25,326 nucleotides of DNA, taken from positions 1 through 25,326 of the forward strand of contig JAGYLS010000021.1 in assembly GCA_018400815.1 (NCBI GenBank). The letters run 5' to 3'. The DNA is from Candidatus Oleincola secundus. GTDB lineage: Bacteria; Atribacterota; Phoenicimicrobiia; Phoenicimicrobiales; Stramentimicrobiaceae. The notes under the pieces were generated by a model that made no database searches, had not been told where the DNA came from, and saw only the letters and a list, made by a program, of their open reading frames with translations. Every line of letters starts with the position of its first letter. Position 1 is the stretch's first letter. Shown here in pieces: positions 1 through 23,759 of the stretch. Both the position numbers and the translations under genes were made by a program.

Positions 1-127
1 TTTTGATTTATTTCCTGATTTACAATATACAATAGAACCAGTTTTTTATCAATCTTTTTTTATCAACACTTCTAAGCTGGATAATCATTATTTTAGAATC
101 AGCATCTAATTTTGCCAGTCCTCTAGG
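1..127 (-). pseudogene. Truncated, frameshifted MazF/PemK toxin remnant (paralog of 2574-2921)
   Basis: Reverse strand reads PRGLAKLDADSKIMIIQLRSVDKKRLIK, nearly the same as SRGLANLDADSKIMIIQLRSVDKNRLLKK of the intact toxin. It then shifts frame in an A run and has a 7-bp duplication (tacaata x2 at 21-34). The 5' half is missing and the 3' end runs off the window. Confidence 0.85.
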
Positions 128-166
128 AAAACGAAACTAGTGAACTAAAAAAATCTAAGTCTTTTA

Positions 167-200
167 TTGCTTTTTGAATGTGATTACATTATAATTACAT
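167..200 (+). promoter_or_regulatory. Sigma70-type promoter with overlapping putative TA operator
   Basis: TTGCTT (167-172), 17 bp, TATAAT (190-195). Overlapped by near-palindromic ATGTGATTACAT and a second ATTACAT half-site. Confidence 0.65.
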
Positions 201-230
201 AAGAAAAACAAATAATAGAAGGTGGTAGAA

Positions 231-479
231 ATGAAAGCAACAATAATTCCTATAGGAAATTCAAAAGGGATAAGGATACCAAAGACAATATTGGAGCAAT
301 GCAATATTTCTGAAAAGGTATCTTTAGAAATAAAAGGAAACTCTATTATCATTAAACCAATTAAAAATACACCAAGAAAAGATTGGGATAAATATTTCAA
401 AATGATGAAGGATAAAAAAGAGGATAGGTTGATGATAAATGATCAGGTTGATTTAGAAATGGAAGATTGGGAATGGTAA
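231..479 (+). CDS. AbrB/MazE/SpoVT-family antitoxin
   Basis: IGNSKGIRIPK swapped-hairpin motif and acidic tail (DLEMEDWEW). ATG at 231 follows GAAGGTGG. Overlaps the downstream toxin. Confidence 0.9.
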   Translation: MKATIIPIGNSKGIRIPKTILEQCNISEKVSLEIKGNSIIIKPIKNTPRKDWDKYFKMMKDKKEDRLMINDQVDLEMEDWEW

Positions 480-796
480 TTAAACAATATGATATATTTT
501 TAATATCTCTAGACCCTACTATAGGTCATGAAATTAAAACAGTTCGTCCATGTGTGGTTATTTCTCCAAATGAAATGAATGATCATATATCTACAATTAT
601 TATTGCTCCTATGACCACTCAGTCACATTCTTATCCAACCAGGGTTCCAATTGATTTTGAGGGTAAAAAAGGTTGGATTGTTCTAGACCAGCTCCGAGCT
701 CTTGACAAAAAAAGATTTGTAAAAAAGCTGGGAAAATTGGATAAAGAAACTATTATCAATGTAAAAAGGATAATACAAGAAATGCTGGTAGAGTGA
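473..796 (+). CDS. mazF: MazF/PemK-family endoribonuclease toxin
   Basis: LDPTIGHEIKTVRPCVVIS, IIAPMTT and DQLRALDKKR motifs. Confidence 0.92.
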   Translation: MVIKQYDIFLISLDPTIGHEIKTVRPCVVISPNEMNDHISTIIIAPMTTQSHSYPTRVPIDFEGKKGWIVLDQLRALDKKRFVKKLGKLDKETIINVKRIIQEMLVE

Positions 797-1290
797 TGCA
801 AGATGCAAGATGTAAAAGTTACGAGTTTCGAGTTGCAAGTTAAGAAAGTTACGAGATGCAAGGTGCGAGATTCAAGGTGCAAGATAAAATTAGTCGATAG
901 TCGTTGGTCGTTAGTATTTAGTTTAATACAATTAAATTCAGTAATATGTAACCAGTAATGAGCAAGACAATTAACCAATGAACTAATTATACTGGTCTGC
1001 CGGTCTGCCAGTCACCCGGTCTTCCAGTCTGTAGGTCAGGCAATCACCAATCGCCAATCTACAATCACTAGTCAAGAAAAAAAACAAAAAACAAATAATC
1101 AAGAATCAAGGCAATTTACCAGTTTACCAGTTTACCAGTTAAATTACAGTATTCAGTATCGCGTATCGGGTATCGAGTCGAAATATAATAAAGGCAATTT
1201 GCTGGTTTACCAGTTTAACAATTAATAAGAAGGGTTTTCAGTTGCCAGTTTACGGTTTTCAGTAAAAAAGATGAATACAATTTACTAATT
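795..1290. repeat. Spacer of concatenated 7/8-bp tandem-repeat modules
   Basis: Successive imperfect runs: GATGCAA/GTTACGA (795-883), TAGTCGT (891-923), CCGGTCTG (992-1040), CAATCAC (1041-1075), TTTACCAG x3 (1113-1140), AGTATCG (1148-1180), GTTTTCA (1234-1264). Confidence 0.9.
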
Positions 1291-1453
1291 CAAAACGTAT
1301 TGCGTGGAAATAAAAAAAACAATTCTATAAGTGTTCCAGTCCATTATTTTGCAATACGATAGATAATTAAAAATAAATTTCTATTCTTTAAAAATGTTTC
1401 TATTAAATGTATAATGATACAGAAGTAAACAAAAACTAAATAACTGTTAATAT

Positions 1454-1864
1454 TTGAACTTATTTGACAAGGTGGTGTTTAAAATTAAAACGGTCAGAGA
1501 TTTAAGTTTAAAAGAAATTCAAAGATATCAGAAGTTTTATAAAGAACAGGAAAAGAAGAAAAAAGAAAAACTACAGCAAAGATATTCCCAAGCATGGTCC
1601 ATAGCAAGGAAAGCAGCCAAGATATTGTATCAGGAGTACAAAGCTCAAAAAGTTGTTGTTTTTGGGTCATTGAGAAATATTGAACTTTTTAGTGAATGGT
1701 CTGATGTTGATATTGCTGTATTGGGTATTAAGCCTGAATTGTATTATAAAGCGGTAGCGAGTGTAATTTCGTTAAGTCCTATATTTAAAATAGATGTTGT
1801 CGACCTTGATGATTGCCAAGAATCATTAAAAAAGGCAATTATAAAAGAAGGTATAGTTTTATGA
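1454..1864 (+). CDS. Minimal nucleotidyltransferase (MNT) antitoxin of an MNT-HEPN pair
   Basis: VVFGSL...SDVDIAV and KIDVVDL Pol-beta NTase motifs. ATGA overlap with the HEPN gene. Exact start uncertain. Confidence 0.88.
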   Translation: MNLFDKVVFKIKTVRDLSLKEIQRYQKFYKEQEKKKKEKLQQRYSQAWSIARKAAKILYQEYKAQKVVVFGSLRNIELFSEWSDVDIAVLGIKPELYYKAVASVISLSPIFKIDVVDLDDCQESLKKAIIKEGIVL

Positions 1865-2314
1865 GTAAAAAGTATCTTGTTTTAAGTCAGAATATTAACA
1901 ATGAATTAGGCGAAATTAGCAAAACTGTTCAAAGAGCAAAAAAGGCCTGGGCTTTAGCTTTAGACAAAGATGATTCCTTATATTTGGATAGTGTGGCATT
2001 AAGTTTGCATGATTTTTATAATGGATTAGAAAGAATATTTGAACGAATTGCAGAAAATGTTGATGAATTTAAACCTAGTAGTATAAATTGGCATCAAGAA
2101 ATATTAAAACAGATGACTATCGAAGTCCCCATAAAAAAGCTCAGGAAGTTACAAAGCAAAATGCTCTGCAATAATTTCATTTATTAGAAATGTATATTCC
2201 CATAATTTCAGAATAGATAAGATGAAAAACTTGATAGGAAAAATCGATAAAGTATTTAATGAAGCAGAAAATAGTCTTCAAGTCTTTAGCAAATTTTTAA
2301 AGAGTACACAATAA
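1861..2314 (+). pseudogene. HEPN (HepT-like) RNase toxin disrupted by a 56-bp foreign segment
   Basis: N-part LHDFYNGLERIFERIA...WHQEILKQMTIEVP stops at 2187. The native C-terminus FIRNVYSHNFRIDKMKNL...KSTQ* resumes in another frame (stop 2312-2314). 2130-2185 is identical to 2555-2610. Confidence 0.82.
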
Positions 2315-2378
2315 TTATTTACTAATTATAAAATACAGTTACCAGCTTTCGGTTAAAAAGACATAATATTTAATCAAC

Positions 2379-2420
2379 ACATAGGTAACACTTTTGATTC
2401 AAGACATAGGTTACATTTTG
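2379..2420. repeat. Direct repeat ACATAGGT(A/T)ACA(C)TTTTG x2, 25-bp period; possible IS-end remnant
   Basis: acataggtaacacttttg (2379-2396) and acataggttacattttg (2404-2420). Confidence 0.5.
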
Positions 2421-2573
2421 CAAGATTGCAAGAATGGAATAATGCAATGATGTAAGAATGTTAATTCAGGAAAACCAATTTATTGGTTACATGTGAATGG
2501 TTGAATAAAGAAAAAAATCTTGTATTGATAATAGAAGGATATAGGTTTCATCAACATAAAAAAGCTCAGGAAG

Positions 2574-2921
2574 TTACAAAGCAAAATGCTCTGCAATAAT
2601 TTCATTTATTCTTTGATTTATTTCCTGATTTAGAATTGATCCAATTTTTTTTAATAATCTATTTTTATCAACGCTTCTAAGTTGGATAATCATTATTTTA
2701 GAATCAGCATCTAAGTTTGCTAATCCTCTGGAAATAAATACTTCAAAAGGATAGACATTCTTTATATTGGAAGATAATGGAGCAATAGTTACTAGGGGGG
2801 AGAATTGATTATGGATATCATTAGAAAGAATGATTGCAGGCCTCTTTTTCTTGGTTTCATGGCCAATCGTAGGATCAAAATTAACCAGGTATATTTCACC
2901 TTTTTTAGGATATGCCGTCAT
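2574..2921 (-). CDS. mazF: MazF/PemK-family toxin
   Basis: KGEIYLVNFDPTIGHETKKKRPAIILS, IAPLSS and QLRSVDKNRL motifs. Confidence 0.92.
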   Translation of the reverse strand: MTAYPKKGEIYLVNFDPTIGHETKKKRPAIILSNDIHNQFSPLVTIAPLSSNIKNVYPFEVFISRGLANLDADSKIMIIQLRSVDKNRLLKKIGSILNQEINQRINEIIAEHFAL

Positions 2922-3132
2922 TTATTGTTCCTTTCAGATTTTTATTCTCCTGGGCAATTTCCTGATAAGCTGATTGATAAGCCTTGATAAGATTTTTCTT
3001 TTTCATTTCTTTTAGCTCTTTTTCTATTGTTTTGGCAATGAATTTACTTCGATTTCTATCGGGAATATCTTTTCTAAGTGAATCAGCCAATTCTTTAGGC
3101 AAAGAAATAGTTACTTTTACTTTATTAGGCAT
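2905..3132 (-). CDS. Ribbon-helix-helix (CopG/MazE-like) antitoxin
   Basis: KVTISLPKEL...RSKFIAKTIE RHH pattern. Upstream of and overlapping mazF. Inverted repeat TTGAC-N6-GTCAA upstream at 3182-3197. Confidence 0.85.
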   Translation of the reverse strand: MPNKVKVTISLPKELADSLRKDIPDRNRSKFIAKTIEKELKEMKKKNLIKAYQSAYQEIAQENKNLKGTINDGIS

Positions 3133-3295
3133 AATATATCACCATCCATAAAATACTTCTATTTATTACATAATAACATGCTTGACTTATATGTCAATTT
3201 AATAATAAGAGTTTTCAGTTTACGGTTTTTGGTAAAACAATTTAAGAAATATGTGATAAAATAATATAAAAAATATATTGTATTGGAGTTCGAAT

Positions 3296-3514
3296 ATGAA
3301 AAAAAAGAGACAATTTACTGTGCTTATTGAAAAAGGCGAAGGCGGATACTTGGTTGGAACTGCTTTAGAGCTAAAAGGGTGTCATAGTCAAGGAAAGACA
3401 ATGGAGGAGCTTCTTGCAAATATGAGAGAGGCAATTGAATTATGCCTGGAAGTTCAAGGAGATAGTGAGCCTTATATTGAAGAGATAGTTGGAATTCAGA
3501 AAGTTGCAGTATGA
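3296..3514 (+). CDS. hicB: HicB-family antitoxin (short form)
   Basis: FTVLIEKGEGGY...LKGCHSQGKTMEELLANMREAIELCLE. Confidence 0.88.
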   Translation: MKKKRQFTVLIEKGEGGYLVGTALELKGCHSQGKTMEELLANMREAIELCLEVQGDSEPYIEEIVGIQKVAV

Positions 3515-3732
3515 GTAAATTACCAATAATGACCGGATTGGAAATTGTAAAAAGATTAGAGAAAAAAGGATTTATAATAATTAGACAAAAAGGAAGCCAT
3601 GTTTTTCTAAGACATAAAAATGATAGTAGAACAACTGTTGTACCAATACATAAAGGCAAGGATGTTGATAGATCTTTGCTTAAAAAGATATTAAATGATA
3701 CAGAGTTGTCTTTTAAAGAATTTGCGAGGTAA
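3511..3732 (+). CDS. hicA: HicA-family mRNA interferase toxin
   Basis: LEKKGF..IRQKGSHVFL...TVVPIH. ATGA overlap with hicB. Confidence 0.9.
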   Translation: MSKLPIMTGLEIVKRLEKKGFIIIRQKGSHVFLRHKNDSRTTVVPIHKGKDVDRSLLKKILNDTELSFKEFAR

Positions 3733-3764
3733 CAAGAATCTGTATCGAATGTCAAATACATTAA

Positions 3765-4005
3765 AGGATAACAAGTAACGAGTGAGAAGCGAATGATTAA
3801 GTTGTCACGGTGCAAGTTTCAAGTTAAGAAAACTGTTTTCAGTTTCCGGTTCTCAGTATTCAGTAAAAGGATCAATCCAATTAAGTATGTCAAAATGTAT
3901 CGAGTAGAAAATTCTATCATTAAATTAAATTGTATTATTTCCAGTAAACTGTTGCATGCTTTTGAACAAATCAATCAATTAACTAACGAAACGAATTAAC
4001 CAATG
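3765..4005. repeat. 7/8-bp module spacer
   Basis: GGTGCAA/GTTTCAA run (3808-3826), GTTTTCA/GTTTCCG run (3833-3865), AATTAAC-type run near 3968-4003. Confidence 0.7.
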
Positions 4006-4011
4006 TATCAA

Positions 4012-4040
4012 TTGGCAAATACAAAAGAATATGGTAGAAT
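4012..4040 (+). promoter_or_regulatory. Sigma70-type promoter
   Basis: TTGGCA, 17 bp, TAGAAT with TGn extension, upstream of the AGGAG RBS of 4081. Confidence 0.55.
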
Positions 4041-4080
4041 ATATTAGAATATTTAATATATTTTTATCAGGAGAAAATAA

Positions 4081-4323
4081 ATGGCAAAAGTAATTACTTT
4101 AAGATTATCAGAAGAAGAATATAAAATGATAGCTGCCGCTGCCAGGACAGAACGACGTCCTATTTCTAATTTTATCACTGCTAAAGTTATGGAAGACATC
4201 GAGGAATCATATTATGTTGACCCGATAGAGATGGACCAGATTAACTCAGACAAAAAACTGATTGAGAAGATGAAAACAGGACATCATGAAGCCTTGGAGA
4301 AGAAAGGCAAATTTGTTGATTAA
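4081..4323 (+). CDS. RHH-type antitoxin
   Basis: VITLRLSEEEYKMI..AA....ISNFI RHH pattern. Overlaps the downstream toxin. Confidence 0.78.
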   Translation: MAKVITLRLSEEEYKMIAAAARTERRPISNFITAKVMEDIEESYYVDPIEMDQINSDKKLIEKMKTGHHEALEKKGKFVD

Positions 4324-4594
4324 GTTTAAAATATTTGAAACTAATCAGTTTATGAAAGACCTTGAAGGAGATTTTAGCGGCCAGCAAACCAGGATAATAA
4401 GAAAACTTCACCATTATGTATACCCCCAAATTAAAGCTAACCCTTATTATGGAAAAAATATAAAAAAATTAATTAATTACCAACCAGAAACCTGGCGTTA
4501 CCGGATTGGGAATTATAGATTTTTTTATGAGATTGAGGATAAAGAAAAAATTATCTATTTGATTGCTGCAGACAGTAGACAGAAGGCTTATTGA
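4313..4594 (+). CDS. RelE/ParE-family toxin
   Basis: FMKDL...NPYYGKNIKKL...TWRYRIGNYRFFYEIE...IYLI. Probable TTG start at 4313 or 4316. Confidence 0.87.
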   Translation: MLIKFKIFETNQFMKDLEGDFSGQQTRIIRKLHHYVYPQIKANPYYGKNIKKLINYQPETWRYRIGNYRFFYEIEDKEKIIYLIAADSRQKAY

Positions 4595-4615
4595 TTTGCA
4601 AGATGCTAGGGAAAT

Positions 4616-4732
4616 ACAATTTACCAATTAACCTATTCACCAGTTTACCAATTAAGAATCAATAAAAAATAAGAATCAATCACTGGTCACCAATCAAAAT
4701 AGTATCAAGTATCGTGTATCGGGTATCGAGTC
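4616..4732 (+). repeat. Block A copy 1 (117-bp direct repeat)
   Basis: Matches 5575-5691 with 3 mismatches by eye. Confidence 0.92.
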
Positions 4733-5166
4733 AAGATAAAATTAAAGAACAAATACAGAGAAAAAAGACATTTTCAGTAAAAGTTGCAAGTTAAAAGAAA
4801 AATGATGATTCCTACTAAATACAACTTCTATCAACATTTTAGCGTTGATGGTTTTTTAATTTCTTTTACCACACACTCGATACTGGCGACTCGATACTTT
4901 TTTATAAATGGATGAGAAAGACATTCTGTGTTGATGGTTTTCAGTTTTCTAAAAAAATGCAAAACCAATGAATCATTAAGTTGTAAACGAGAAGATTTAT
5001 GCTAAACACTAAAAAAAACAGAAATATTTTATGTTATAATTAAAATAGGCCTTTATTTCCTCTATTGGTCTTAAATATGATTATTCCATAAAAATAAATA
5101 AATATAAGATATTTTAATATACATTATTAAAGATAAATTTATCTTAAGTAAAAAAAGGTGATAAAA

Positions 5167-5383
5167 ATGATATTTAGAGTAACTGTAGAGAAAGATGAAT
5201 CTGGTTATTATGTTGGAGAAGTGCCAGCTTTACCGGGATGTTTAAGTCAAGGTAAATCCATTGAAGAATTAAAGGTAAATATTGCGGAAGCAATCGAAGG
5301 TTGGTTAGAAGTTATGAATAGGAATTTTAAAGAAATTAATTAAGCAAGCTGGTTTGAATATTGATCAATTTAACAATTTATAA
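5167..5383 (+). pseudogene. hicB: hicBA operon with internal deletion: HicB N-part joined to a HicA C-terminal remnant
   Basis: HicB motif VPALPGCLSQGKSIEEL..NIAEAIEGWLE (stop 5343). A second frame at 5321-5383 reads GILKKLIKQAGLNIDQFNNL*, typical of a HicA C-terminal helix. Confidence 0.78.
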
Positions 5384-5465
5384 AAAAAAGTAATACCATA
5401 TTAAATTTGCTTCAATGAAACCGAAAATACGATAGTTAAAAATAGTATCAAGTATCGGGTATGTA

Positions 5466-5524
5466 GTATCGAGTCAAAAGACAAAGAAAAAAAGTCTGCC
5501 GGTCTGCCAGTCACCCGGTCTACC
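5466..5524 (+). repeat. Block B copy 1 (59-bp direct repeat)
   Basis: Matches 6536-6594 with 1 mismatch. Looser similarity extends on both sides. Confidence 0.9.
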
Positions 5525-5574
5525 GGTAATATAATCACTAATCAACAATCGCCAATTACCAGTCAACAATTAAA

Positions 5575-5721
5575 ACAATTTACCAATTAACCTATTCACC
5601 AGTTTACCAATTAAGAATCAATAAAAAATAAGAATCAATCACTGGTCACCAATCAAAATAGTATCAAGTATCGCGTATCAAGTATCGAGTCGAAATATAA
5701 TAAAGGCAAATTGCTGGTTTA
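5575..5721 (+). repeat. Block A copy 2, overlapping block D copy 2
   Basis: 5575-5691 matches 4616-4732. 5667-5721 matches 1155-1209 (55 bp, 3 mismatches). Confidence 0.9.
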
Positions 5722-5916
5722 ATGTAAAAAAAAGCAAAAAAAATTAATTATTAAATTGTATAGGTTTTGACTAAACAACGATGACAAAATATTGCATGTG
5801 AATTTACTAATAAATTTTGATATTATTGACATAGGAATCTTATTATGGTATATGTAAGAAAGTAAGAAATTATTACTATAAGAAAATATGATATATAAAA
5901 AATATAGGTGATAAGT

Positions 5917-6186
5917 ATGGCATTAGTTCAAATAAGAGAAAAATCACAAATAACCATTCCGAGTAGTATACGAAAGGAATTGGGAATTAAAAAGGGTGAT
6001 TATTTAGAAGTAATTAGAGAAGGTGATCGTATTTTACTCATTCCTAAAATAGTTGTTGATAAGAATTCGGTAGTATTATCGAGAAAAGGAGAAGAATATT
6101 TAAAAGAAGCTTTAAATGATGTCAAAGAGGGGAGAGTTAGGGACAGTAATAATGTTGAAGAATTATTTGATGACCTGAAAAGTTAA
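5917..6186 (+). CDS. AbrB/MazE/SpoVT-family antitoxin
   Basis: KSQITIPSSIRKELGIKKGDYLEV motif, with C-terminal EALNDVKEGRV...VEELFDDL. Confidence 0.87.
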   Translation: MALVQIREKSQITIPSSIRKELGIKKGDYLEVIREGDRILLIPKIVVDKNSVVLSRKGEEYLKEALNDVKEGRVRDSNNVEELFDDLKS

Positions 6187-6194
6187 TTTATAAA

Positions 6195-6452
6195 ATGAAA
6201 TTAATTTATACTAATAGTTTTAAAAAAGATTATCAAAAACTTTCTAATGTAATTCAAAATAAAACTAATCAAAAAATAAAATTACTTGTTGAAAATCTTT
6301 CTCATCCTTCATTAAGAGTAAAAAAAGTACAAAAATACCCGGGTATCCTTGAAGGTACTATCAACAAAAATTATCGTTTATTGTTTCAAATAACTTCTGA
6401 TGGGATAATTTTGCTGAGAATTGGTAAGCACGATATTTTAGAACAAATTTAA
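6195..6452 (+). CDS. RelE/YafQ-superfamily toxin
   Basis: YTNSFKKDYQKL...HPSLRVKKV...YRLLFQ...LLRIGKHD. Confidence 0.82.
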   Translation: MKLIYTNSFKKDYQKLSNVIQNKTNQKIKLLVENLSHPSLRVKKVQKYPGILEGTINKNYRLLFQITSDGIILLRIGKHDILEQI

Positions 6453-6535
6453 TGACTAACACCGATCACTGGTCAACAATTAAAATAATTTACCAATTTA
6501 CCAATTAAAATACAGTATTCAGTATCGCGTATCAG

Positions 6536-6594
6536 GTATCGAGTCAAAAGACAAAGAAAAAAAGTCTGCCGGTCTGCCAGTCACCCGATCTACC
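6536..6594 (+). repeat. Block B copy 2
   Basis: Matches 5466-5524 with 1 mismatch. Confidence 0.9.
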
Positions 6595-6741
6595 AGTCAG
6601 ATAATCACCAATCGCCAATTACCGTTCAAAATAGTATCAAGTATCGCGTATCAGGTATCGAGTCCAAAATACAATGAAATACAAGATGAAAACAATAAAA
6701 GTTGTTTTCGAACGTTGGTTGCCAGTTTAGAGTAAAAAGAT

Positions 6742-6853
6742 GCAATCTATAATTTACAAATTAACCAATTAATGAGAACGGTTTTCTGTTTACAGTTAAA
6801 TACAAGATAATTCAATTTACCAATCAAAAGCGTATATATTATAACGTATAACG
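6742..6853 (+). repeat. Block C copy 1 (112-bp direct repeat, upstream of cysQ)
   Basis: Matches 7896-8007 with 1 mismatch. Confidence 0.93.
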
Positions 6854-7024
6854 TGACAATATAAAAAAAAGAAAGTCTGCCTGCCAATTTAAGTTAAATC
6901 ATCAAAAAAAAGATAAATAATAATTTGTTTTTGTTGGTATCATAAGTGTAAACTATTGATATATTCAAGTATTGAAGAATGGCAATTGGCAAAACAAAAT
7001 TATCAATATTTCAGAGGTAAGGTA

Positions 7025-7849
7025 ATGTTAGAAGAGGTATACAAAAAGAAGAAAGACATTTTTGAGGTTATCAGAAAAGCAGGGGATGAGATACTAAAAG
7101 TTTATTCAGGTAATGATTTTCAAGTGGAAACAAAGAGTGATAAAACACCGCTAACACTTGCCGATAAAAAATCCAATGAAGTAATAGTAAATGGTTTGAT
7201 TAGATTATTCCCTGAGCTGCCGTTTTTATCGGAAGAAAGCAAAAAGACAGCTTATCAGGAGAGGAAAGGATGGGAATATCTATGGTTAATTGACCCTCTG
7301 GATGGAACCAAAGAATTCATAAAGAAAAATGGAGAATTTTCCATTAATTTGGCTTTGATAAAAGATGGTAAGCCAATATTTGGGATACTTTATTTGCCGG
7401 TTTTAGGATTATTTTATTATGCCGGAAAAGGATATGGAGCTTATAAAATAGAGAAGAACGGCAAAACAATTTGTTTGAAACACGAGAAATATAATAAAAA
7501 TGATGTTAATAGAAATATTAGAGTCATTTTTTCCAAATCACATTATAACCAGGAAACAAGGGATTATGTGGATAGGATAAGAAAACAATATTATAATACT
7601 GAAATGATATCAGTAGGCAGTGCTATGAAACTGGCTTATTTAGCTGAAGGGAAAGCTGATCTTTATCCACGGTTGGCAACAACTATGGAATGGGATATTG
7701 CTGCAGGCCAGGTAATATTAGAGGAATCTGGCGGAAAGGTACTAGACTTTTATAAAAAAACCCCGCTAATATACAATAAAGATGATTTAAGAAATCCCTG
7801 GTTTGTGGCATTTGGGAACAGTAATCAGTATCGTGTATCGAGCATGTAG
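7025..7849 (+). CDS. cysQ: 3'(2'),5'-bisphosphate nucleotidase CysQ
   Basis: KSDKTPLTLAD, LSEE, WLIDPLDGTKEFI, GSAMKL, YPRL..TMEWDIAAG motifs. Likely ATG at 7025 (ORF open from 6956). Confidence 0.93.
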   Translation: MLEEVYKKKKDIFEVIRKAGDEILKVYSGNDFQVETKSDKTPLTLADKKSNEVIVNGLIRLFPELPFLSEESKKTAYQERKGWEYLWLIDPLDGTKEFIKKNGEFSINLALIKDGKPIFGILYLPVLGLFYYAGKGYGAYKIEKNGKTICLKHEKYNKNDVNRNIRVIFSKSHYNQETRDYVDRIRKQYYNTEMISVGSAMKLAYLAEGKADLYPRLATTMEWDIAAGQVILEESGGKVLDFYKKTPLIYNKDDLRNPWFVAFGNSNQYRVSSM

Positions 7850-7895
7850 TATCGAGTTGAAAATACAGTAAAAAGTAATAAGTGATAAGTAATTG

Positions 7896-8007
7896 GCAAT
7901 CTATAATTTACAAATTAACCAATTAATGAGAACAGTTTTCTGTTTACAGTTAAATACAAGATAATTCAATTTACCAATCAAAAGCGTATATATTATAACG
8001 TATAACG
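7896..8007 (+). repeat. Block C copy 2 (downstream of cysQ)
   Basis: Matches 6742-6853 with 1 mismatch. Confidence 0.93.
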
Positions 8008-8248
8008 GGAAAAAACAAAAAAAGAAAGTTGGCTAGTCTCCCGGCCTGCCGGTCACCCTATATAATACAAGAAAAAACAAGATGCATAAAACAACTTAAC
8101 TTCCTGCAATGACGGGGAGGGAAAGCCCTACATTTTTACTATAATTACCTTCAAAGAAATTGGGTTTTAAGGTTAAATAAAAAGCTATTGTCTTTGGAAA
8201 GCAAAATATTATCATTATAGCAAAATAACATATTATGTTAATATAATA

Positions 8249-8277
8249 TTGACAAATAGTGATAATAATGCTATATT
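8249..8277 (+). promoter_or_regulatory. Sigma70-type promoter
   Basis: TTGACA (8249-8254), 17 bp, TATATT with TGn extension. Confidence 0.65.
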
Positions 8278-8311
8278 TCAGTAAGAAAATACAACAAAGA
8301 GGTGAATTGAA

Positions 8312-8593
8312 ATGGTAGAAGTTATTGGTAAAATTGCCAGGAATGGACATATTACAATTCCCGGGAAAATAAGAAAAATATTAAATATTGAAGATGGAGA
8401 TATTGTTAAATTCAATGTGGAAGGTAACAAAATAACTATTACCCCGGGAGTTATTATAGATAAAGACCAGGCGTATTTCTTTAAAAAAGAAACACAGGAA
8501 CAGATAAAAAAATCAGAGAAAGAAATTAAAGAAGGTAAGTATTCAACTTTTGCCTCTGCTAAAGATTTAAAGAAAGCAATTGAAAGTGAATAG
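8312..8593 (+). CDS. AbrB/MazE/SpoVT-family antitoxin
   Basis: RNGHITIPGKIRKILNIEDGDIVKF and DKDQAYFF motifs. GAGGTG RBS. Confidence 0.87.
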   Translation: MVEVIGKIARNGHITIPGKIRKILNIEDGDIVKFNVEGNKITITPGVIIDKDQAYFFKKETQEQIKKSEKEIKEGKYSTFASAKDLKKAIESE

Positions 8594-8852
8594 AAAAATA
8601 CACATACCAGAACATCTAGTTAAATCATTGAAAGGTAAGAGAAAATTTCCGAAACCGATTAAAGAAAAGTTTTACTGGTGCCTGACTATGCTTTTAGGAA
8701 ATCCACAATATCCTTCTTTAAGAAATAAAACGGTAAAAGGAACAACAGATATATGGGAATTTAGCATTAATAAAAACTATAGATGTATATACAGAAAAGA
8801 CAAAGAGGATATATATATTTTAGCGATTGCCAAACATGAAGATGCTTTTTAG
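8586..8852 (+). CDS. RelE-superfamily toxin (divergent)
   Basis: NPQYPSLRNKTVKGT..IWEFSINKNYRCIY...YILAIAKHE. Resembles 6195-6452. Start may be 8580 or 8586. Confidence 0.75.
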   Translation: MNRKIHIPEHLVKSLKGKRKFPKPIKEKFYWCLTMLLGNPQYPSLRNKTVKGTTDIWEFSINKNYRCIYRKDKEDIYILAIAKHEDAF

Positions 8853-8857
8853 GAAAT

Positions 8858-8969
8858 AATTTACTTTCAAAAATTTTATTGTATTTTGAGCTAAATACTA
8901 AGTACCAAAGACTAACGACTTTTTTATAAGTGGATGAGATTGCTTTGTCGCTACGCTCCGCGCAATGAC
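8858..8969 (-). repeat. Block E copy 1 (112 bp, includes GTCATTGCG...GCAATCTC REP-like element at 8932-8969)
   Basis: Inverted match to 23490-23601 with about 12 mismatches. Partial CGCAATGAC half-copies follow at about 8982-9075. Confidence 0.88.
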
Positions 8970-9194
8970 AAAAAAAGGAAAACTCCGCGCAATGACAAAA
9001 TAGTATCGTACAAGTATGTAGTATCGAAGTCTTCTCCAACGCAATGAAGCTCAAGGGTGACTACGCGCAATGACGGAGGGATGGTCTCCCATCTTTTTCT
9101 CTCTTAAAAAGTTGAATTAATACTGCCATGGTTGTAAACTATTAAAATAGATTTAATTTTTACTACATTAAGATCTTTCAAGGCGATAAATATC

Positions 9195-10337
9195 ATGAAA
9201 ATAATTATTGTTGGTGCTGGCCCGGTTGGTTGTTATACTGCTCAATTACTAACAAGAATGGGTTATAAGCCTATTGTGTTGGAAGAACATTCCAGTGTAG
9301 GAAAACCCGTACAGTGTGCCGGAATTGTATCTTCAAAGCTTTTTTCTAAGACAAAATCATTAATTTCAGAGGAAGCAATTATAAATCGGATTAATGGATT
9401 TTCTATCAGTTCACCATGGGTGGAAGAATTTTCAATCAATATTCCTGGTATTGCCTGCATTATTAATCGAGAAAAGTTTGATATAAATATGGGAAAAGAC
9501 TTAGATATTCGCTTGGATAAACGTGTTTCTTATATCGAAAAAGAGAAAAAGCAGTACTGTGTAAAAACAGTACAAGGGGAAACATTTAAAGCAGATATTT
9601 TGATTGGTGCTGATGGTCCTGATTCAATTGTCCGCAATTATATGCTGGAAAATTACAGCAAAAATAAAAGCAATATAAATTCAAAAATAAATTATTATTT
9701 CGGTATGCAATATCAAATACAATTGTATGAAGATTATTCGAACATTTCTGATGATTTAATTCAAGTTTTTTTTGATAGCAATATTCCATTTTTTCTCTGG
9801 ATTATCCCTGAGAGTAAAGAAAAGCTACGTGTTGGGGTAGTAGCTGAAAATGCAAAAAATATATTGGATGGGTTTATTAAAAGCAAAAATATAAAAGGGG
9901 AAATCATTGACGTTATTGCTGGTAAAATACCTATGGGGTTCATTCCAACCTACTATAACAATATTGCCCTGGTTGGAGATGCTGCCTGTCAAATAAAACC
10001 TTTAACAGGTGGTGGTCTGTCTTATGGTATCCAATCTGCCAGTTTACTTGCTGATTGCATAGAAGAAGGCCATCTAAGTAAATATGACCAGAGATGGAAA
10101 AGGAAGTTTGGGAAAGAAATACGGTTTGGTTTAAAGGCGAGAAATATTTATGAGAATTTAGATAGTAAGCAGAGGGGAAAAATATTTAGTTTATTCAAAA
10201 AGAATTCTCATTTTATTGAACAGGTTGTTGACTTTGATAATCACTCTATATTATTTAAAGAAGCATTTAAAAATCCCCAGCTGCTATTTGATGCAGGAAA
10301 ACTATTAGGATTTTATATGGAAGACATGTTAAAATAG
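9195..10337 (+). CDS. Geranylgeranyl reductase-family FAD-dependent oxidoreductase
   Basis: IVGAGPVG, PVQCAG, IGADG and LVGDAACQIKPLTGGGL motifs. Confidence 0.85.
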   Translation: MKIIIVGAGPVGCYTAQLLTRMGYKPIVLEEHSSVGKPVQCAGIVSSKLFSKTKSLISEEAIINRINGFSISSPWVEEFSINIPGIACIINREKFDINMGKDLDIRLDKRVSYIEKEKKQYCVKTVQGETFKADILIGADGPDSIVRNYMLENYSKNKSNINSKINYYFGMQYQIQLYEDYSNISDDLIQVFFDSNIPFFLWIIPESKEKLRVGVVAENAKNILDGFIKSKNIKGEIIDVIAGKIPMGFIPTYYNNIALVGDAACQIKPLTGGGLSYGIQSASLLADCIEEGHLSKYDQRWKRKFGKEIRFGLKARNIYENLDSKQRGKIFSLFKKNSHFIEQVVDFDNHSILFKEAFKNPQLLFDAGKLLGFYMEDMLK

Positions 10338-10372
10338 GTCATAGGAAGATATAGGATATAGGAGGAGTTTAT

Positions 10373-11443
10373 ATGAAAGCGATTATACTATGTGCAGGGA
10401 AAGGGACTAGATTAAGACCGCTTACTTATACCAGCGCAAAACATCTTATTCCATTGGCAAATAAGCCGGCTTTAGAATACGGTATAGAGAAAATAAAAGA
10501 ATGCGGAATAGATGAAATTGGTATTATTATTGGTGAAGAAACTGGAGAAGATATCAAGCGGGAAATTGGTGATGGACAGAAGTTTGGGATTAAGATTAGT
10601 TATATAATGCAGAAAGAACCGCTTGGATTAGCCCATGCTGTGAAAGTATCTCGAGATTTTTTAAAGGATGAACCCTTTCTGATGTATTTAGGTGATAATT
10701 TACTGAAAAATAATATTTCACAATATCGTAAAAAATTTGAAGAGGGCAAAAAACAGGCTTTTGTTCTGTTGACACATGTAGATAACCCACAAGCTTTTGG
10801 CATAGTTGAGCTTAAGGACAAGAAAATTGTTCGAATGGTTGAAAAACCAAAAGATCCGCCAACTGACTTAGCACTTATCGGGGTATATTTTTTTGATAAA
10901 GCTATCCATCAAGCTATTGATAATATTAAACCTTCAGGTCGGGGAGAGCTAGAAATAACTGATGCCGTTCAATGGCTGGTTGATAATCAATATGATGTTG
11001 AGGCTGAAGTTATTGAGGGCTGGTGGAAAGATACCGGCAAGCCTGAGGATATTATTGAGGCAAATCGCTTGATTTTAGAAGATATTTCCCGAGATTTAAG
11101 AAGTGCAATAATTGATACCAAGTCTAAGGTGTTTGGCAGAGTTAATTTAGCTAAAAATGTAGAAATCATTAATTCGACAATATTAGGTCCGGTTGTAATT
11201 GGTGAGAATGCCAAAATTATCAATTCTTATATAGGTCCTTTTACATCTTTATCCGAGGGAGTCACTGTTGAGAATGGTGAAGTTGAGTATAGTGTTGTAA
11301 TGTCCAATACTTATATCGAAAATGTCAAGTGTCGAATGCAGAATTGTCTAATTGGTAAGGATGTTCATATCTATCGTTCCGGAGAGATGCCCAGGGTTCA
11401 TGAATTTATACTGGCAGATGACAGCAGTGTTCGATTAATTTAA
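10373..11443 (+). CDS. rfbA: Glucose-1-phosphate thymidylyltransferase, long form
   Basis: AGKGTRLRPLTYTSAKHLIPLANKP, QKEPLGLAHA, YLGDN, SGRGELEITDA, WWKDTGKP, plus a C-terminal beta-helix extension. Confidence 0.9.
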   Translation: MKAIILCAGKGTRLRPLTYTSAKHLIPLANKPALEYGIEKIKECGIDEIGIIIGEETGEDIKREIGDGQKFGIKISYIMQKEPLGLAHAVKVSRDFLKDEPFLMYLGDNLLKNNISQYRKKFEEGKKQAFVLLTHVDNPQAFGIVELKDKKIVRMVEKPKDPPTDLALIGVYFFDKAIHQAIDNIKPSGRGELEITDAVQWLVDNQYDVEAEVIEGWWKDTGKPEDIIEANRLILEDISRDLRSAIIDTKSKVFGRVNLAKNVEIINSTILGPVVIGENAKIINSYIGPFTSLSEGVTVENGEVEYSVVMSNTYIENVKCRMQNCLIGKDVHIYRSGEMPRVHEFILADDSSVRLI

Positions 11444-17204: not shown

Positions 17205-17272
17205 TAGGGGGTCAGGTCTTCACATTTGACATTTTATTAGAGAAATGTCAAATGTGAAGACCTGACCCCCTA
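17205..17272. repeat. Perfect 30-bp inverted repeat (REP-like; could also act as terminator)
   Basis: TAGGGGGTCAGGTCTTCACATTTGACATTT, 8-nt loop, exact reverse complement. Starts 8 bp after the stop codon. Confidence 0.9.
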
Positions 17273-18971: not shown

Positions 18972-19556
18972 ATGAGATACAACGATTTGAAGAGAATCAA
19001 AAAAAAATATTTCAACTACCAGGATATAGCTAGAGTCCTTTCCATATCCGAAGCCTCGGCGAGGGTAATAGCAAGCAGATATGTTAAGAAAAATTATCTA
19101 ATTCGTTTGAAAAATAATTATTACATTTTCAAAGAAAGATGGAACAATTTAAGATACATAGAAAAAATGGAAATTGCAAATATTATTCAGGTCCCATCCT
19201 ATATTTCTCTTATGACAGCCTTATCCTATTATGAAATTACTACTCAGGTCCAGAAAAACTATTTTGAATCAATTTCTATATATAGAACTTTTAACAAAGA
19301 TGTAAATGACACCACTTTTAACTATAGTAAAATTCAACAGCTATACTATTTTGGTTTCAATAAAGAAAAGGGCATATTCATTGCCTCAACAGAAAAAGCA
19401 TTTATTGATGCTCTCTATTTGACTTATCGAGGGAAATATAATTTAGATATTAGTTCAATCGATTTAAAAAAAATAGATCAAAATAAAATTGATAAACTTT
19501 TACGGATTTACTCGGATAAATTTACGAATTATGTCAATAGGATATTAAATGATTGA
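18972..19556 (+). CDS. AbiEi-family type IV antitoxin / transcriptional regulator
   Basis: N-terminal wHTH (LIRLKNNYY), PSYISLMTALSYY, IASTEKAFIDALY. Confidence 0.85.
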   Translation: MRYNDLKRIKKKYFNYQDIARVLSISEASARVIASRYVKKNYLIRLKNNYYIFKERWNNLRYIEKMEIANIIQVPSYISLMTALSYYEITTQVQKNYFESISIYRTFNKDVNDTTFNYSKIQQLYYFGFNKEKGIFIASTEKAFIDALYLTYRGKYNLDISSIDLKKIDQNKIDKLLRIYSDKFTNYVNRILND

Positions 19557-20217
19557 TTTAGGACAACAGGAACTTTTTGAAATAGAAGTACTCGTATGGT
19601 TAAAAAATAAGAGATTTCTTAAAAATCTTATCTTTGGTGGTGGAACCATGATGAGGTTATGTCATAATCTGAATAGATATTCCATTGATTTGGATTTCTG
19701 GTTGTACAATGTTCAAGAGATAGATAAATTCTATAATAATATTAAAGATAGTTTGTTTCAAGAATACACAATAACAGATACCCAAAACAAATACCATACC
19801 TTATTATTTGAAATCAAAAAAACACCTTATCCCCGAAAATTAAAAATCGAAATAAGGAAAGAAATGGAAAAAGCAGATTTCCAGGAGAAAATAGCCTATT
19901 CAAAGCAAGGGAATATGCAGGTGCTTGTTAAAGGATTTACATTAGAGCAGATGATGCAAAACAAAACTAAAGCATTATTAGATAGGAAAGAAATCAGAGA
20001 TGCCTTTGATATTGAATTTTTGGTAAGAAGCGGAATTGAATTATCTGCTGATATGGAAAAAATTAAGAAAATGGAAAAAATTGTCAGAAATTTTAAAAAA
20101 AGAGATTATTATGTTACTCTAGGTTCATTATTAGAATCGAAAACTCGAGGTTATTATAAGCAAAATGGATTTTCTTATTTAATACAGATGCTCAATCAAA
20201 AACTATCTTATAAGTGA
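19549..20217 (+). CDS. AbiEii-family nucleotidyltransferase toxin
   Basis: FGGGTMMRL, RYSIDLDF, KIEI and K..AL..R...RDAFDI motifs. Confidence 0.88.
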   Translation: MIDLGQQELFEIEVLVWLKNKRFLKNLIFGGGTMMRLCHNLNRYSIDLDFWLYNVQEIDKFYNNIKDSLFQEYTITDTQNKYHTLLFEIKKTPYPRKLKIEIRKEMEKADFQEKIAYSKQGNMQVLVKGFTLEQMMQNKTKALLDRKEIRDAFDIEFLVRSGIELSADMEKIKKMEKIVRNFKKRDYYVTLGSLLESKTRGYYKQNGFSYLIQMLNQKLSYK

Positions 20218-20514
20218 TAGTATTGGTTAATTAGTTCCGCTAGTTAATTTGTTAATTTGTTACAAATACTAAAGAAGTATCTTGAAAATTTATTTAACCA
20301 TAAAAAGATTAAGATAAGCTAGAGGACAATTTTTCACCTGAAGTCCAAAGTATGAAGTTATATTACTTAGAAATATTATAGCTAAGGTATAAATAAAAAA
20401 TCGAAAGAAAAAGAGCTAAAAATTGGTAAAAAGTTAAACCTCTTTTAGAGGTTCTTAAAGCCACCCGCTATGCGGGTGCGATATTTATTGTATTTTATTG
20501 CAAATAAACTCTTC

Positions 20515-20780
20515 TAATTATTTGATCAATTGGACAATTGGTTAATTGATTTGATTGTTAACCAATAGACCGGTAGATTGGTCAACTTTATTTTTTTTAC
20601 ATTTTACGCAATACGCAATATGATATACTAATCATATCTTAAATTTATATGGTATACACTATACGATTTCGACTCTATATTGGTTGCTGTTTTGATTGGT
20701 GATTGGAGATTAGTGATTGGGGATTGTCTTTAGGCTCGATACTATATACTCGATACTATTTTTACGTTATTACGTTATAA
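20515..20780 (-). repeat. Module spacer in inverted orientation
   Basis: Reverse complements of the AATTAAC/TTACCAAT, CCGGTCT, CAATCAC (TGATTGG run 20692-20727), AGTATCG (CTCGATACT 20736-20759) and ATAACGT modules. Confidence 0.82.
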
Positions 20781-20813
20781 AAGTATATTATATCTTTTAA
20801 TAGGGGTATTTCA

Positions 20814-21578
20814 ATGATTGAAATAATTACAGGAATTATAATCTTTGTAATTGGGCTGGTAATCGGCAGTTTTAGCAATGTCTGCATTTACCGAATTCCC
20901 CGTAATGAATCAATCATACACCCGGGCTCACATTGCCCGCAATGCTCTAAGCCTATCCCATTTTATGACAATATTCCCGTAATCAGTTATATTCTCTTAA
21001 AAGGCAAATGCCGCTATTGCGGTCAACCGATACCGCTTCAATATCCAATAGTGGAGCTGGCAACAGGCCTGTTTTATCTTGCCTTGTATTTATTTTATGG
21101 GTTACAGCTAATTGCTTTCGTATACATGTTATTTTGCACCCTGTTAATAATTATCAGCTTCATTGACCTGAAAGAAAGAATTATTCCTGATGTTTTATCA
21201 TTACCCTTTATGGCTATTGGTTTTATATTAAGTTTCTTCATGAAGAGCCTTTCACCTATAGATTCCTTGCTTGGCATCCTGGCAGGTGGTGGCAGTTTGC
21301 TGATAATAGCAATTGCTGGTACTTATTTATTTAAAAAAGAGGCAATGGGAGGAGGGGATATAAAGCTGGGGGCCATGATTGGTGCCTTTCTCGGTTGGCA
21401 ATTAACCCTGCTTTCCCTGTTTCTTGGTTTCTTTCTGGGCTCTATTATCGGTGTTATTGTATTAATCATAAATAAAGGAAAAACTGACATTGTTCCTTTT
21501 GGCCCTTTTATTGCCCTTGGTGCTATACTCTCTATATTCTGGGGACAAGCCATTATCCACTGGTATCTGATGATTTGA
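20814..21578 (+). CDS. pilD: Prepilin peptidase / N-methyltransferase (A24 family)
   Basis: GSFSNVCIYRIP, SHCPQC, GKCRYC, IDLKERIIPD, MGGGDIKL and VPFGPFI motifs. Confidence 0.95.
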   Translation: MIEIITGIIIFVIGLVIGSFSNVCIYRIPRNESIIHPGSHCPQCSKPIPFYDNIPVISYILLKGKCRYCGQPIPLQYPIVELATGLFYLALYLFYGLQLIAFVYMLFCTLLIIISFIDLKERIIPDVLSLPFMAIGFILSFFMKSLSPIDSLLGILAGGGSLLIIAIAGTYLFKKEAMGGGDIKLGAMIGAFLGWQLTLLSLFLGFFLGSIIGVIVLIINKGKTDIVPFGPFIALGAILSIFWGQAIIHWYLMI

Positions 21579-21876
21579 TCTTCGAAGGTATAATTGATAG
21601 CAAGCCGTTTTCAGTTTCCGGTTTTTAGTTTACAGTTTTAATTCAATTAATGCATTTTCTAAAAAATTATTGACATATTAATAGATCCAATAATTTAGAA
21701 CCTGACAAAACAGAGAATTATAAAATATTATTTTCTTGCTACTTGTACCCTACATTTTTTATTTTATGTTATGCGCTTTATACAAATCCTAATCTTTTTA
21801 ATTATTGTAAAATAAAGTATAATTAATTTATAATATTGAATCGATAAGCAATATCTCTTAGAAGGACTTAATAATT

Positions 21877-22092
21877 ATGAAATTTATGGTTATATTAGAA
21901 CCTGCCGAAGAAGGGGGCTATAACGTTTCTGTACCTGCTCTTGATGGTTGCTTTACACAAGGGATGGATGAAAAAGAAGCCTTAAAAAATGTAAAAGAAG
22001 CAATTAAATGTTATCTGGAAGGCATGGAAAAAATCAATGAAATAAAGACAAAACCTGGATTTATTGCAAAAGAAGTAAAGGTTTCTTTATGA
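21877..22092 (+). CDS. hicB: HicB-family antitoxin (short form)
   Basis: [23 protein letters not shown]...[15 protein letters not shown]. Confidence 0.9.
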
Positions 22093-22306
22093 GTAAAGTT
22101 TTTTCAGGTCGAGAGCTAGTAAAAGCTCTTCATCGTACTGGTTTTATCATAGACCATCAAAGAGGTAGTCATATTTTTTTACATAATCCTGAAAAAATAT
22201 CTCTTTAATTGTTCCTACTAATCATAAAGAAATAAGAAAAGGTACTTTAAATTCAATTATTAAAAAGGCAGGAATTACTTTTAAACAGTTAAAAAAATTA
22301 GTATAG
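22089..22306 (+). pseudogene. hicA: HicA toxin with a 1-bp frameshift in an A6 tract
   Basis: [36 protein letters not shown], then stop at 22206-22208. Adding one A at 22192-22197 restores [36 protein letters not shown]. Confidence 0.88.
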
Positions 22307-22446
22307 AGTAGTGAATATCAAGTTGGTATTTTTAGTTAAAATTTCATTTTGATTTATTAAACACTATTAATTATAATCAAAACTATTAAAAAGAAATACA
22401 AATTATATTAACTAATACAACTAGAATATTTTATAAGGGAGGAACT

Positions 22447-22650
22447 ATATTCAATAGAATATATAAAGTTAATGTAACTATCGAAAAAGATGAATATGGT
22501 TATTTTGCTTATTGCCCGGCATTAGAAGGCTGCCAAACACAGGGTGATACCTTCGAAGAAGCATTAAGCAATATAAAAGAGGCTATAGCTGAAGAAGCCT
22601 TGAACATAAATAAAGCCAAAGAATATTATAATACCTTAAAAAAAAATTAA
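22447..22650 (+). pseudogene. hicB: HicB remnant with ATA in place of the start codon and a foreign C-terminus
   Basis: GGGAGG RBS, then IFNRIYKVNVTIEKDEYGYFAYCPALEGCQTQGDTFEEALSNIKEAI, continuing AEEALNINKAKEYYNTLKKN*. Confidence 0.75.
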
Positions 22651-22651
22651 T

Positions 22652-22753
22652 ATTATAGATTGCTTTTATAAAAAAACATTCTTAAAAGATTTAGCAAGCA
22701 TTCTGGAAATTTATCAAAAAAGAATTAAAATGTTTGTTTTTAAAAAATTATAA
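22652..22753 (+). pseudogene. RelE/ParE toxin N-terminal remnant
   Basis: IIDCFYKKTFLKDLASILEIYQKRIKMFVFKKL*. No start codon; truncated. Confidence 0.55.
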
Positions 22754-22784
22754 TAAATTCTTTGCAAGCAAAAGGAGATTTAAT

Positions 22785-23006
22785 ATGAGATTTCAAGTTA
22801 TTTTTACTTATGATCCCGAATATAGAGGATATGTAGCTGATGTACCTGAATTACCAGGTTGTATGAGTCAAGGAAAAACAATAGATGAGGCGGTCAAAAA
22901 CATAAAGGATGCAATAAAAGGTTATCTTTATGTGCAAAAAAAACATAATCGAAAAATTAAGGATATCGAAAGTGAAAGCGCCTTTATTGGTGAGGTAACT
23001 GTTTAA
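22785..23006 (+). CDS. hicB: HicB-family antitoxin (short form)
   Basis: AAGGAG RBS. GYVADVPELPGCMSQGKTIDEAVKNIKDAIKGYL. Confidence 0.9.
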   Translation: MRFQVIFTYDPEYRGYVADVPELPGCMSQGKTIDEAVKNIKDAIKGYLYVQKKHNRKIKDIESESAFIGEVTV

Positions 23007-23224
23007 TGGGTATTTTGTCTAATATATCAGGCAAGAAGGCTACTAAAATTTTTTGTAAAATTGGATATTTTGTGGATCACCACACTGGAAGTCACATGAT
23101 TTTATATCATGATTCAAGGCCAACACTATCTATACCGGAGCATAAGGAATTGGCTCCAGGATTATTACGTGGGTTAATTAGAAGAGCTGGTATAGAAGTC
23201 GAAGAATTTCTAAAGATAAAATAA
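23006..23224 (+). CDS. hicA: HicA-family toxin
   Basis: GYFVDHHTGSHMIL...LSIPEHKELAPGLLRGLIRRAG. Confidence 0.9.
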   Translation: MGILSNISGKKATKIFCKIGYFVDHHTGSHMILYHDSRPTLSIPEHKELAPGLLRGLIRRAGIEVEEFLKIK

Positions 23225-23285
23225 AAGAGATTTGGACAAAATACTTACAATATCTATTACAACTAAAGGATTAGCTCTTCTTTTG

Positions 23286-23601: not shown

Positions 23602-23709
23602 TTATAAGACTCCTGGAGAGAGTGAATGATTAACAGTTTTTACTTTTAATTAGCAAATAGTATTTACTTGAAACATGTATTAAACAATTTGAAACTATTC
23701 GTATTCTTA

Positions 23710-23738: not shown

Positions 23739-23759
23739 TTGCTAACAGAGGTGATGATA

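Follow-up and report, generated by a model that had tools for sequence, protein, structure and literature searches.

How a row of small toxin–antitoxin (TA) genes separated by short repeats is put together, and whether those repeats amount to a new kind of cassette site, is the question raised by contig JAGYLS010000021.1 of Candidatus Oleincola secundus (phylum Atribacterota), the whole of which (25,326 nt; C124 of bin G000, 2.02 Mb in 213 contigs, 86 % complete) formed the window analysed here. An earlier note, made from the sequence alone, had described positions 1-8970 as an integrase-free array in which repeat spacers act as generic junctions for the gain, shuffling and loss of gene units, analogous to an integron but with a different site type. 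Our verdict is that the array is a new variant of repeat-associated gene shuffling and not a new site-specific system.

Using Pfam, we identified in 1-8970 seven TA pairs, an orphan HicB gene and cysQ, together with a pemK remnant at the contig start, and the existence of an array of nine TA loci or remnants plus cysQ, alternating with spacers, was thereby confirmed (units U1–U9, with cysQ as U8; Table 1). The pairs are adjacent antitoxin and toxin genes of known type II/VII families, such that TA function is predicted; the antitoxin of U3, for which no Pfam family scored over the cut-off, is assigned to the ribbon–helix–helix (RHH) type from its position, and the labels RHH and repetitive extragenic palindrome (REP) are, for unannotated parts, what we take these to be. 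The spacers measured 163–675 bp, which is of the order given before (roughly 150–660 bp) although the exact range did not hold, and they do reuse the same modules, with periods of 7 and 8 bp that exceed chance (68 period-7 arrays in the genome, compared with five in one block-shuffled genome). Brackets around single units, previously put at 55–117 bp, are likewise real, but the three repeats that enclose U6, U7 and cysQ are slightly longer (∼131–135 bp, 84–96 % identity), and the 56-bp perfect copy pair (2130-2185/2555-2610) is pemK coding sequence and contains no module. Promoter-like sites as a class were not in excess (63 vs 51.3 ± 7.2); strong ones at 8249, 3197 (minus strand), 4012, 1387 and 5817 nevertheless fell at the edges of units conserved in relatives, in agreement with the suggestion that several TA pairs carry their own promoter.

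Comparison with related genomes revealed that each unit recurs as a block that opens at approximately the −35 box and closes at the stop codon, and that the units share no terminal site; the U1 block, for example, was found in G002, G006 and G029, and 27 metagenome loci were mapped for U7. Neither content nor order was identical between relatives. The window reads U1-U2-U3-U4-U5-U6-U7-cysQ-U9, whilst upstream of the same anchor gene G014 has U3-U1-U6-U5-U3-U2-U4; G002 has U7-U5-U9-U1-U4 and G011 has U5-U2, and none of these units was present upstream of the anchor in at least 10 other relatives for which sequence of this region is available. Identity to the G011 counterparts is 94 % for U2 and 91 % for U5, compared with 74–80 % for core genes, and an MNT-HepT unit on contig C209, which at 5.2 kb could be misbinned, is 93–95 % identical to units in two genomes of another family, where aspS reaches only 66–72 %. 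As units are often more alike than core genes between the same genomes, they move sideways; at polysaccharide loci of relatives the same TA units are arranged in different orders, and they are found across genus and family boundaries. The proposal of small, self-contained units that are gained, shuffled and lost was therefore upheld, except that no constant site terminates them. Contigs C120 and C209 of the same bin (L196 and L198) are further TA-array contigs with the same modules, and may represent the upstream part of the array locus or strain alternatives to it.

Decay of the units followed a direction. Four arrays (those of the window, G014, G002 and L222) each contained decayed second copies of a unit, and amongst 82 counted TA instances (three redundant loci, and instances broken at a contig edge, were excluded), 55 were intact pairs, 11 had kept the antitoxin with the toxin lost or broken, none showed the reverse, and 16 were broken in both genes or cross-family; two of the ‘broken’ calls, at 73–79 % coverage, may reflect alignment limits. 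Decayed units hence mostly lose the toxin first (11 vs 0), which is what addiction, the usual argument for TA retention, predicts. Within the window, the pair to which the orphan HicB of U6 belonged is intact in G002:C39, with a similar deletion in G006 and a different one in G029. In U2, a 56-bp copy of the pemK 3′ end (2130-2185) replaces part of HepT, a gene that is intact in G011 (94 % over 672 bp). This copy originates 425 bp downstream, and its end coincides with the start point of the contig and with the pemK deletion point in G007; a template switch, a fragile spot or an assembly effect are all possible causes. The pemK remnant at the contig start is fused to the region upstream of the first TA pair, with the same fusion point in G007.

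In order to establish what the modules are, the genome was scanned for periodicity, which returned 94 segments on 25 of 213 contigs and none inside ORFs (open reading frames) of ≥ 150 aa. Fourteen of these lie in 1-8970 and four in a variant contig, C62, whilst the other 76 are elsewhere in the genome, many of them beside housekeeping genes; neighbours include aspS, wecB, pyrG, uvrA, lptG/B, ksgA, hypD/E/F, purM/F, thrC, murD, efp and upp (75 of the 220 ORFs on module-bearing contigs were compared with NCBIfam). Genes that co-occur with the modules were also found: four-helix-bundle genes (PF05635), present in 33 of 41 genomes, are flanked by the same 7-/8-mer units as the array spacers (30 loci). 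By eye, complementary arms stand on both sides of the gene in 19 of the 30, and the rest are one-sided or same-polarity stacks. The arms of these four-helix-bundle cassettes are thus built of the same units as the array spacers. Within 1-9000, 21 of 22 motif clusters are left arms, and the TA units are not each enclosed by a complementary left/right pair. Genome-wide, and relative to transcription, left arms fell in the 5′ half in 10 of 15 cases and right arms in the 3′ half in nine of 15, from crude ORF calls and with 10 clusters unscored. The spacer palindromes, too, have cognate genes in the lineage (stand-alone GIY-YIG, DUF559 and Y1 transposases). As such, the modules are common intergenic filler of this lineage, composed of 7/8-bp arms of the four-helix-bundle cassette type and REP palindromes. 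They also lengthen and shorten beside housekeeping genes; the spacer between xerD and PNP, which carries no cargo, differs in module content in all six genomes compared. On a contig of G029 (L173, C145), a unit of module and pemK is fused with the opening codons of a gene resembling sugar dehydrogenases; the fusion lies in a stack of right arms in which a four-helix-bundle gene is also found.

Duplicated module blocks, moreover, bracket resident genes. A 339-bp block (90 % identity) lies on both sides of a frameshifted xerD (G000:C134, L192 3536-4421), a gene that is syntenic and intact in G002, G006, G007 and G011; another Xer-like gene in the bin, on C170, is intact. Since the downstream copy shares its end with G001, the upstream copy is likely the derived one. 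A 69-bp block similarly brackets aspS, and C167 contains a 1.2-kb gene-less spacer built of repeated module blocks. For a 171-bp bracket around an AAA gene, which is missing from that site in G007, either insertion or duplication fits. With xerD and aspS bracketed in the same genome, a block–gene–block arrangement is no proof of cassette insertion. The claim that the modules are the site type of the array was accordingly not sustained; found beside housekeeping genes throughout the genome, they are likely to be ordinary recombination anchors rather than a new integron-like site.

Integron cassette arrays, including clusters of attC sites lacking integron-integrases (CALINs), are rows of small, mostly co-oriented units, many of them TA pairs with their own promoter, that are reordered between genomes. 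The present array shares with these its small and mostly co-oriented units, own promoters, reordering, and even the fixed orientation of its one inverted unit, but it has no IntI, attC series or constant site borne by the units, its junctions often lie mid-gene, and its spacers are long and found genome-wide. No integron integrase scored over the TIGR02249 cut-off in any of 41 genomes (G000 being 86 % complete), as had been anticipated. A simple pattern scan of ∼9 kb for attC, based on its consensus, returned two palindromic sites (four strand hits), one of them in coding sequence, which is chance level (five of 20 shuffles gave one site), and the 3′ flanks of units differ between genomes with no attC-like site after each. 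With, in addition, no whole-unit gain or loss at a fixed nucleotide, an integron or CALIN was rejected. So were a retro-mechanism, as reverse transcriptase occurs in nine of 22 genomes and two of 13 good ones, and a GxxExxY partner, present in one of 22. Searches against Rfam found no known RNA family in 1-9000, all eight matches lying further on and under gathering scores.

We consider it reasonably probable that 1-8970 is a TA hotspot beside a polysaccharide locus which turns over without an enzyme of its own, by short-homology duplication and deletion together with anchored uptake, the modules being one anchor among several. Block–gene–block arrangements, whether they enclose TA units or resident genes, would arise if a tandem duplication at one short module were followed by a deletion at a different one, and the brackets would then permit the clean loss of a unit; the decayed second copies in four arrays fit such a sequence of events. 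For incoming DNA, a module or a shared TA gene may provide the anchor at one end and microhomology the join at the other, which would explain both retained orientation and mid-gene junctions, whilst addiction would hold intact pairs in place and thereby let the region grow. DNA uptake by the host is plausible from its gene content, since comEC was found in 21 of 22 genomes and the window encodes a prepilin peptidase and a pilin. Two junctions within the bin support the reading. C62, a 98.9 % identical variant of 5648-7934, begins with 21 nt that match only 4605-4625, such that it leaves the path of the window at 4625, within repeat A copy 1, and reads as an allele without U6 that switches inside the octamer module. 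C120 parts from C209 after 32 shared nt inside this same module, and thus both of the two within-bin neighbour switches fall there.

Several observations weigh against this reading, and they also temper the idea of the spacers as generic junctions, for which the two within-bin switches speak. Across 65 loci (alignments of ≥ 200 bp and ≥ 95 % identity; contig-end and N-containing ends dropped), we collected 60 distinct alignment ends, which are not independent and were scored with self-made masks. Eight of the 60 were mid-gene and count against modules as junctions; a module on the shared side accompanied 16 of 52 non-coding ends (31 %, compared with a 21.9 % background; p = 0.09), six of 16 at 97 % identity (p = 0.12), and with a strict mask eight of 59, where 16.6 % was expected. 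As this excess is not significant, the anchor role draws mostly on the two contig-end matches of 21 and 32 nt. In G002, U7 runs directly into U5 with no module between them, and coding sequence is the site of four junctions in the window, two of them formed by the ends of the 56-bp copy in HepT and the others by the pemK remnant and the hicB-hicA fusion. C62 keeps no whole copy of repeat A, and hence is not a clean pop-out, whilst the presence of comEC is no proof of competence. U7 occurs in both module polarities (10 sense, five antisense), so not all moves keep orientation. Finally, some unit edges, situated a few bases before the −35 box, stay sharp at 98–99 % identity, which passive erosion predicts poorly. 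An excess of ends at −35 boxes, striking by eye, was not significant (six of 52 vs 6.7 %, p = 0.14).

Many of these same points suit a passive hotspot, in which illegitimate events alone would account for the insertion and decay of units in a region that tolerates them, and modules would be mere spacer filler with no part in movement: the insignificant module excess, the four coding junctions, the U7-U5 contact and the lack of a constant flank would all be expected. Against it stand the switch of both within-bin alternatives in one octamer module and the presence of genome-specific repeated blocks, with four occurrences in the G002 array and several in that of G014. Orientation speaks against it as well. 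Relative to module polarity, this is fixed for six of seven scorable units, with U1 (9/9), U2 (2/2), U4 (4/4), U5 (6/6) and U6 (5/5) in sense; 34 of 79 instances, including U9, gave no or mixed signal. Sense orientation is confounded with transcription, making U3 the informative case: it is antisense to the modules in all four scorable loci, including L067, where it is nevertheless co-oriented with its neighbours. As a result, we regard a purely passive origin as unlikely. Fixed polarity would also suit a dedicated machinery encoded elsewhere, a possibility raised in the earlier note, that recognizes arms or REPs and captures or excises units; it might consist of a four-helix-bundle protein and its partner, of an Ssn-like GIY-YIG nuclease or of a Y1 transposase. 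Each repeat type has a cognate gene in the lineage, with arms around four-helix-bundle genes, CGTC-type REPs around a stand-alone GIY-YIG gene beside a U6 unit in G002, and other REPs around DUF559 genes and Y1 transposases, the last present in 19 of 22 genomes; the two copies of repeat D enclose cysQ almost exactly, and the C209 unit that is 95 % identical to one of another family has one edge inside a REP hairpin. Against such machinery stand the brackets around xerD and aspS, the failure to find stand-alone GIY-YIG or DUF559 in G000 (86 % complete), the scarcity of reverse transcriptase and GxxExxY, and the fact that no shared junction motif or common nucleotide was seen among the ends; the inclusion of the −35 box in the units, furthermore, would argue against an mRNA-derived cassette. 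We therefore hold dedicated machinery to be improbable. The same low credence applies to a wider proposal, that arms and cognate small proteins (four-helix-bundle, Ssn-like GIY-YIG) might form a phylum-wide, integrase-free system of gene capture, in which polar modules would be landing pads for promoter-to-stop units crossing genera and families in fixed orientation, and TA arrays in polysaccharide loci would be cassette stores. Least credible, and in our view very improbable, is that the duplications and the C62 allele are assembly artefacts of a strain mixture. The bin does hold strain variants, C62 among them, and the start of the contig coincides exactly with the end of the 56-bp perfect repeat in pemK, but the repeat copies differ by 4–16 %, the same design is seen in genera that were assembled independently, and four public runs from two studies hold 48–79 % of the words of the stretch (the best may be the source sample; 16 further runs, including both RNA runs, hold a small share or none). 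Doubt of this kind applies to the 56-bp copy in HepT alone.

The preferred reading, enzyme-free turnover with modules among the anchors, finds its nearest parallel in Neisseria. By analogy, the array may work most like the neisserial intergenic mosaic element (NIME) arrays, from which its repeat type and its cargo of TA pairs differ, and the view that no described system matches this architecture hence needs amending. According to PMC1797815, NIME arrays are mosaics of non-coding repeats at many loci whose length is dynamic between relatives; they are proposed to raise exchange of adjacent genes, as homologous substrates or recombinase targets, and were not observed outside Neisseria. NIME arrays and minimal mobile elements share with our array mosaic repeats at many loci that vary between relatives, and also CGTC-tagged palindromes with a cognate GIY-YIG gene, Ssn being such a nuclease in Neisseria (PMC11893778). 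The bulk of the spacers here, however, consists of 7/8-bp periodic arms and not dRS3/RS, with only one CGTC-type REP, at the array end; the cargo is TA pairs instead of surface-antigen genes, and whole units are reordered. What corresponds to endpoint concentration at NIMEs is here 31 vs 22 % (p = 0.09), with the two of two within-bin switches. Heptamer repeats of Beggiatoaceae, cyanobacteria (STRR, short tandemly repeated repetitive sequences) and Bacteroidetes are, according to PMC4679880, intergenic 7-bp direct repeats with strand bias and unexplained function, for which a role as recombination hotspots was suggested; here, several unit types share a spacer and left/right arm pairs surround four-helix-bundle genes, and the main text of that paper contains none of the words toxin, intervening and 23S. 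Homology-assisted illegitimate recombination, in which one end is anchored by homology and the other is illegitimate, such that orientation is kept and resident DNA replaced, is described in the sections seen of PMC2884548 in other naturally competent species only; here, it would involve short anchors (20–135 bp). Hotspots of hicAB in ANME-1 (anaerobic methanotrophic archaea), sediment microbes whose TA operons show insertions and partial deletions in variable regions, are reported in the accessible portion of PMC13385816, which describes no repeat-module spacers. TA arrays with such spacers were not found in the literature searched, where coverage is thin for subscription papers and without supplements. 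The locus offers a case outside Neisseria, in an abundant sediment phylum, where mosaic intergenic repeats meet a mobile TA pool, and a concrete test of the role of bacterial heptamer repeats, with the 133-bp and 135-bp brackets as substrates for deletion assays.

Table 1. Features of the array and its anchor in the window (percentages are identities; Pfam, assigned by Pfam)
Feature	Position	Strand	Remarks
pemK-interior remnant of a second RHH-PemK unit	1..128	-	84 % to 2612-2734; contig start
U1: promoter region, AbrB/MazE antitoxin, PemK/MazF toxin	162..796 (genes 231-796)	+	PF04014, PF02452
Spacer S1: stacked 7-mer and 8-mer periodic modules, left-arm polarity throughout	797..1300	+	
U2: MNT-HepT, HepT broken	1384..2315 (genes 1472-2272)	+	Pfam
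Spacer S2: 25-bp tandem pair and 8-mer module	2337..2470	+	Also in G001, G002, G011, G012
U3: RHH-type antitoxin, PemK	2571..3205 (genes 2574-3132)	-	Pfam for PemK; antisense to module polarity
U4: HicB-HicA	3218..3732 (genes 3296-3732)	+	Pfam; block in relatives
U5: DUF6290/RHH antitoxin, ParE/RelE	3998..4596 (genes 4081-4594)	+	Pfam; promoter-like 4012-4040; 91 % to G011
Direct repeat A, copy 1: octamer and heptamer modules	4613..4745	+	133 bp; 94 % to copy 2
Gene-less left-arm/right-arm pair, predicted long hairpin	4696..4900	+	RNA fold z −3.97; 0/200 shuffles as stable
U6: HicB fused to last codons of HicA, toxin lost	5130..5391 (gene 5167-5391)	+	Internal deletion
Direct repeat C, copy 1	5436..5566	+	∼131-132 bp; 84 % to 6505-6629
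Direct repeat A, copy 2	5572..5704	+	94 % to 4613-4745
U7: AbrB, RelE/ParE	5817..6452 (genes 5917-6452)	+	Pfam; 88 % to G002
Direct repeat C, copy 2	6505..6629	+	84 % to 5436-5566
Direct repeat D, copy 1	6742..6876	+	135 bp; 96 % to 7896-8029
U8: cysQ (inositol monophosphatase family), upstream region, trailing arms	6889..7887 (gene 7025-7849)	+	PF00459
Direct repeat D, copy 2	7896..8029	+	96 % to 6742-6876
U9: AbrB, RelE/ParE	8224..8859 (genes 8312-8852)	+	Pfam; promoter-like 8249-8277
Right-arm module and CGTC-type REP palindrome	8858..9010	+	Same REP type flanks stand-alone GIY-YIG gene in G002
Conserved anchor: FAD (flavin adenine dinucleotide)-dependent reductase, sugar-phosphate nucleotidyltransferase	9195..11443	+	Pfam/synteny with relatives

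The array sits upstream of the reductase/nucleotidyltransferase pair; in relatives, the region upstream of this reductase contains polysaccharide genes. The cysQ unit recurs as an 83 % block in G001 in another context. Among the matches listed, the closest to its product is from an Atribacterota genome (80 % aa identity), followed by matches outside the phylum at 42–51 % aa, and a search of species genomes listed one close Atribacterota locus and at least 79 distant ones. A second TA cluster occupies 18972-25326 of the same contig, where AbiEi/AbiEii, several HicB/HicA pairs (some broken) and CopG-RelE surround the prepilin peptidase and pilin genes, with REPs and arms of both polarities. Positions 8858-8984 and 23475-23601 form a 127-nt inverted repeat (87 %) of arm and REP, 14.5 kb apart, that could flip the intervening stretch. 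A perfect 30-bp inverted repeat lies at 17205-17272, with an arm that recurs at the end of a Y1 transposase locus on C119, and 20286-20490 is a ∼200-bp element with ∼50 copies in the genome, one of them just upstream of an IS200-like Y1 transposase on C133, making it a possible miniature inverted-repeat transposable element (MITE) or REPIN. Elsewhere in the bin, C189 (L206) carries parA, mazEF and an 8-mer module type of its own, and is possibly a plasmid or an integrated element, whilst the UDP-glucose dehydrogenase at 13605-15218 of L193 (C101), at 537 aa, is ∼100 aa longer than the family models, which it matches in two stretches.

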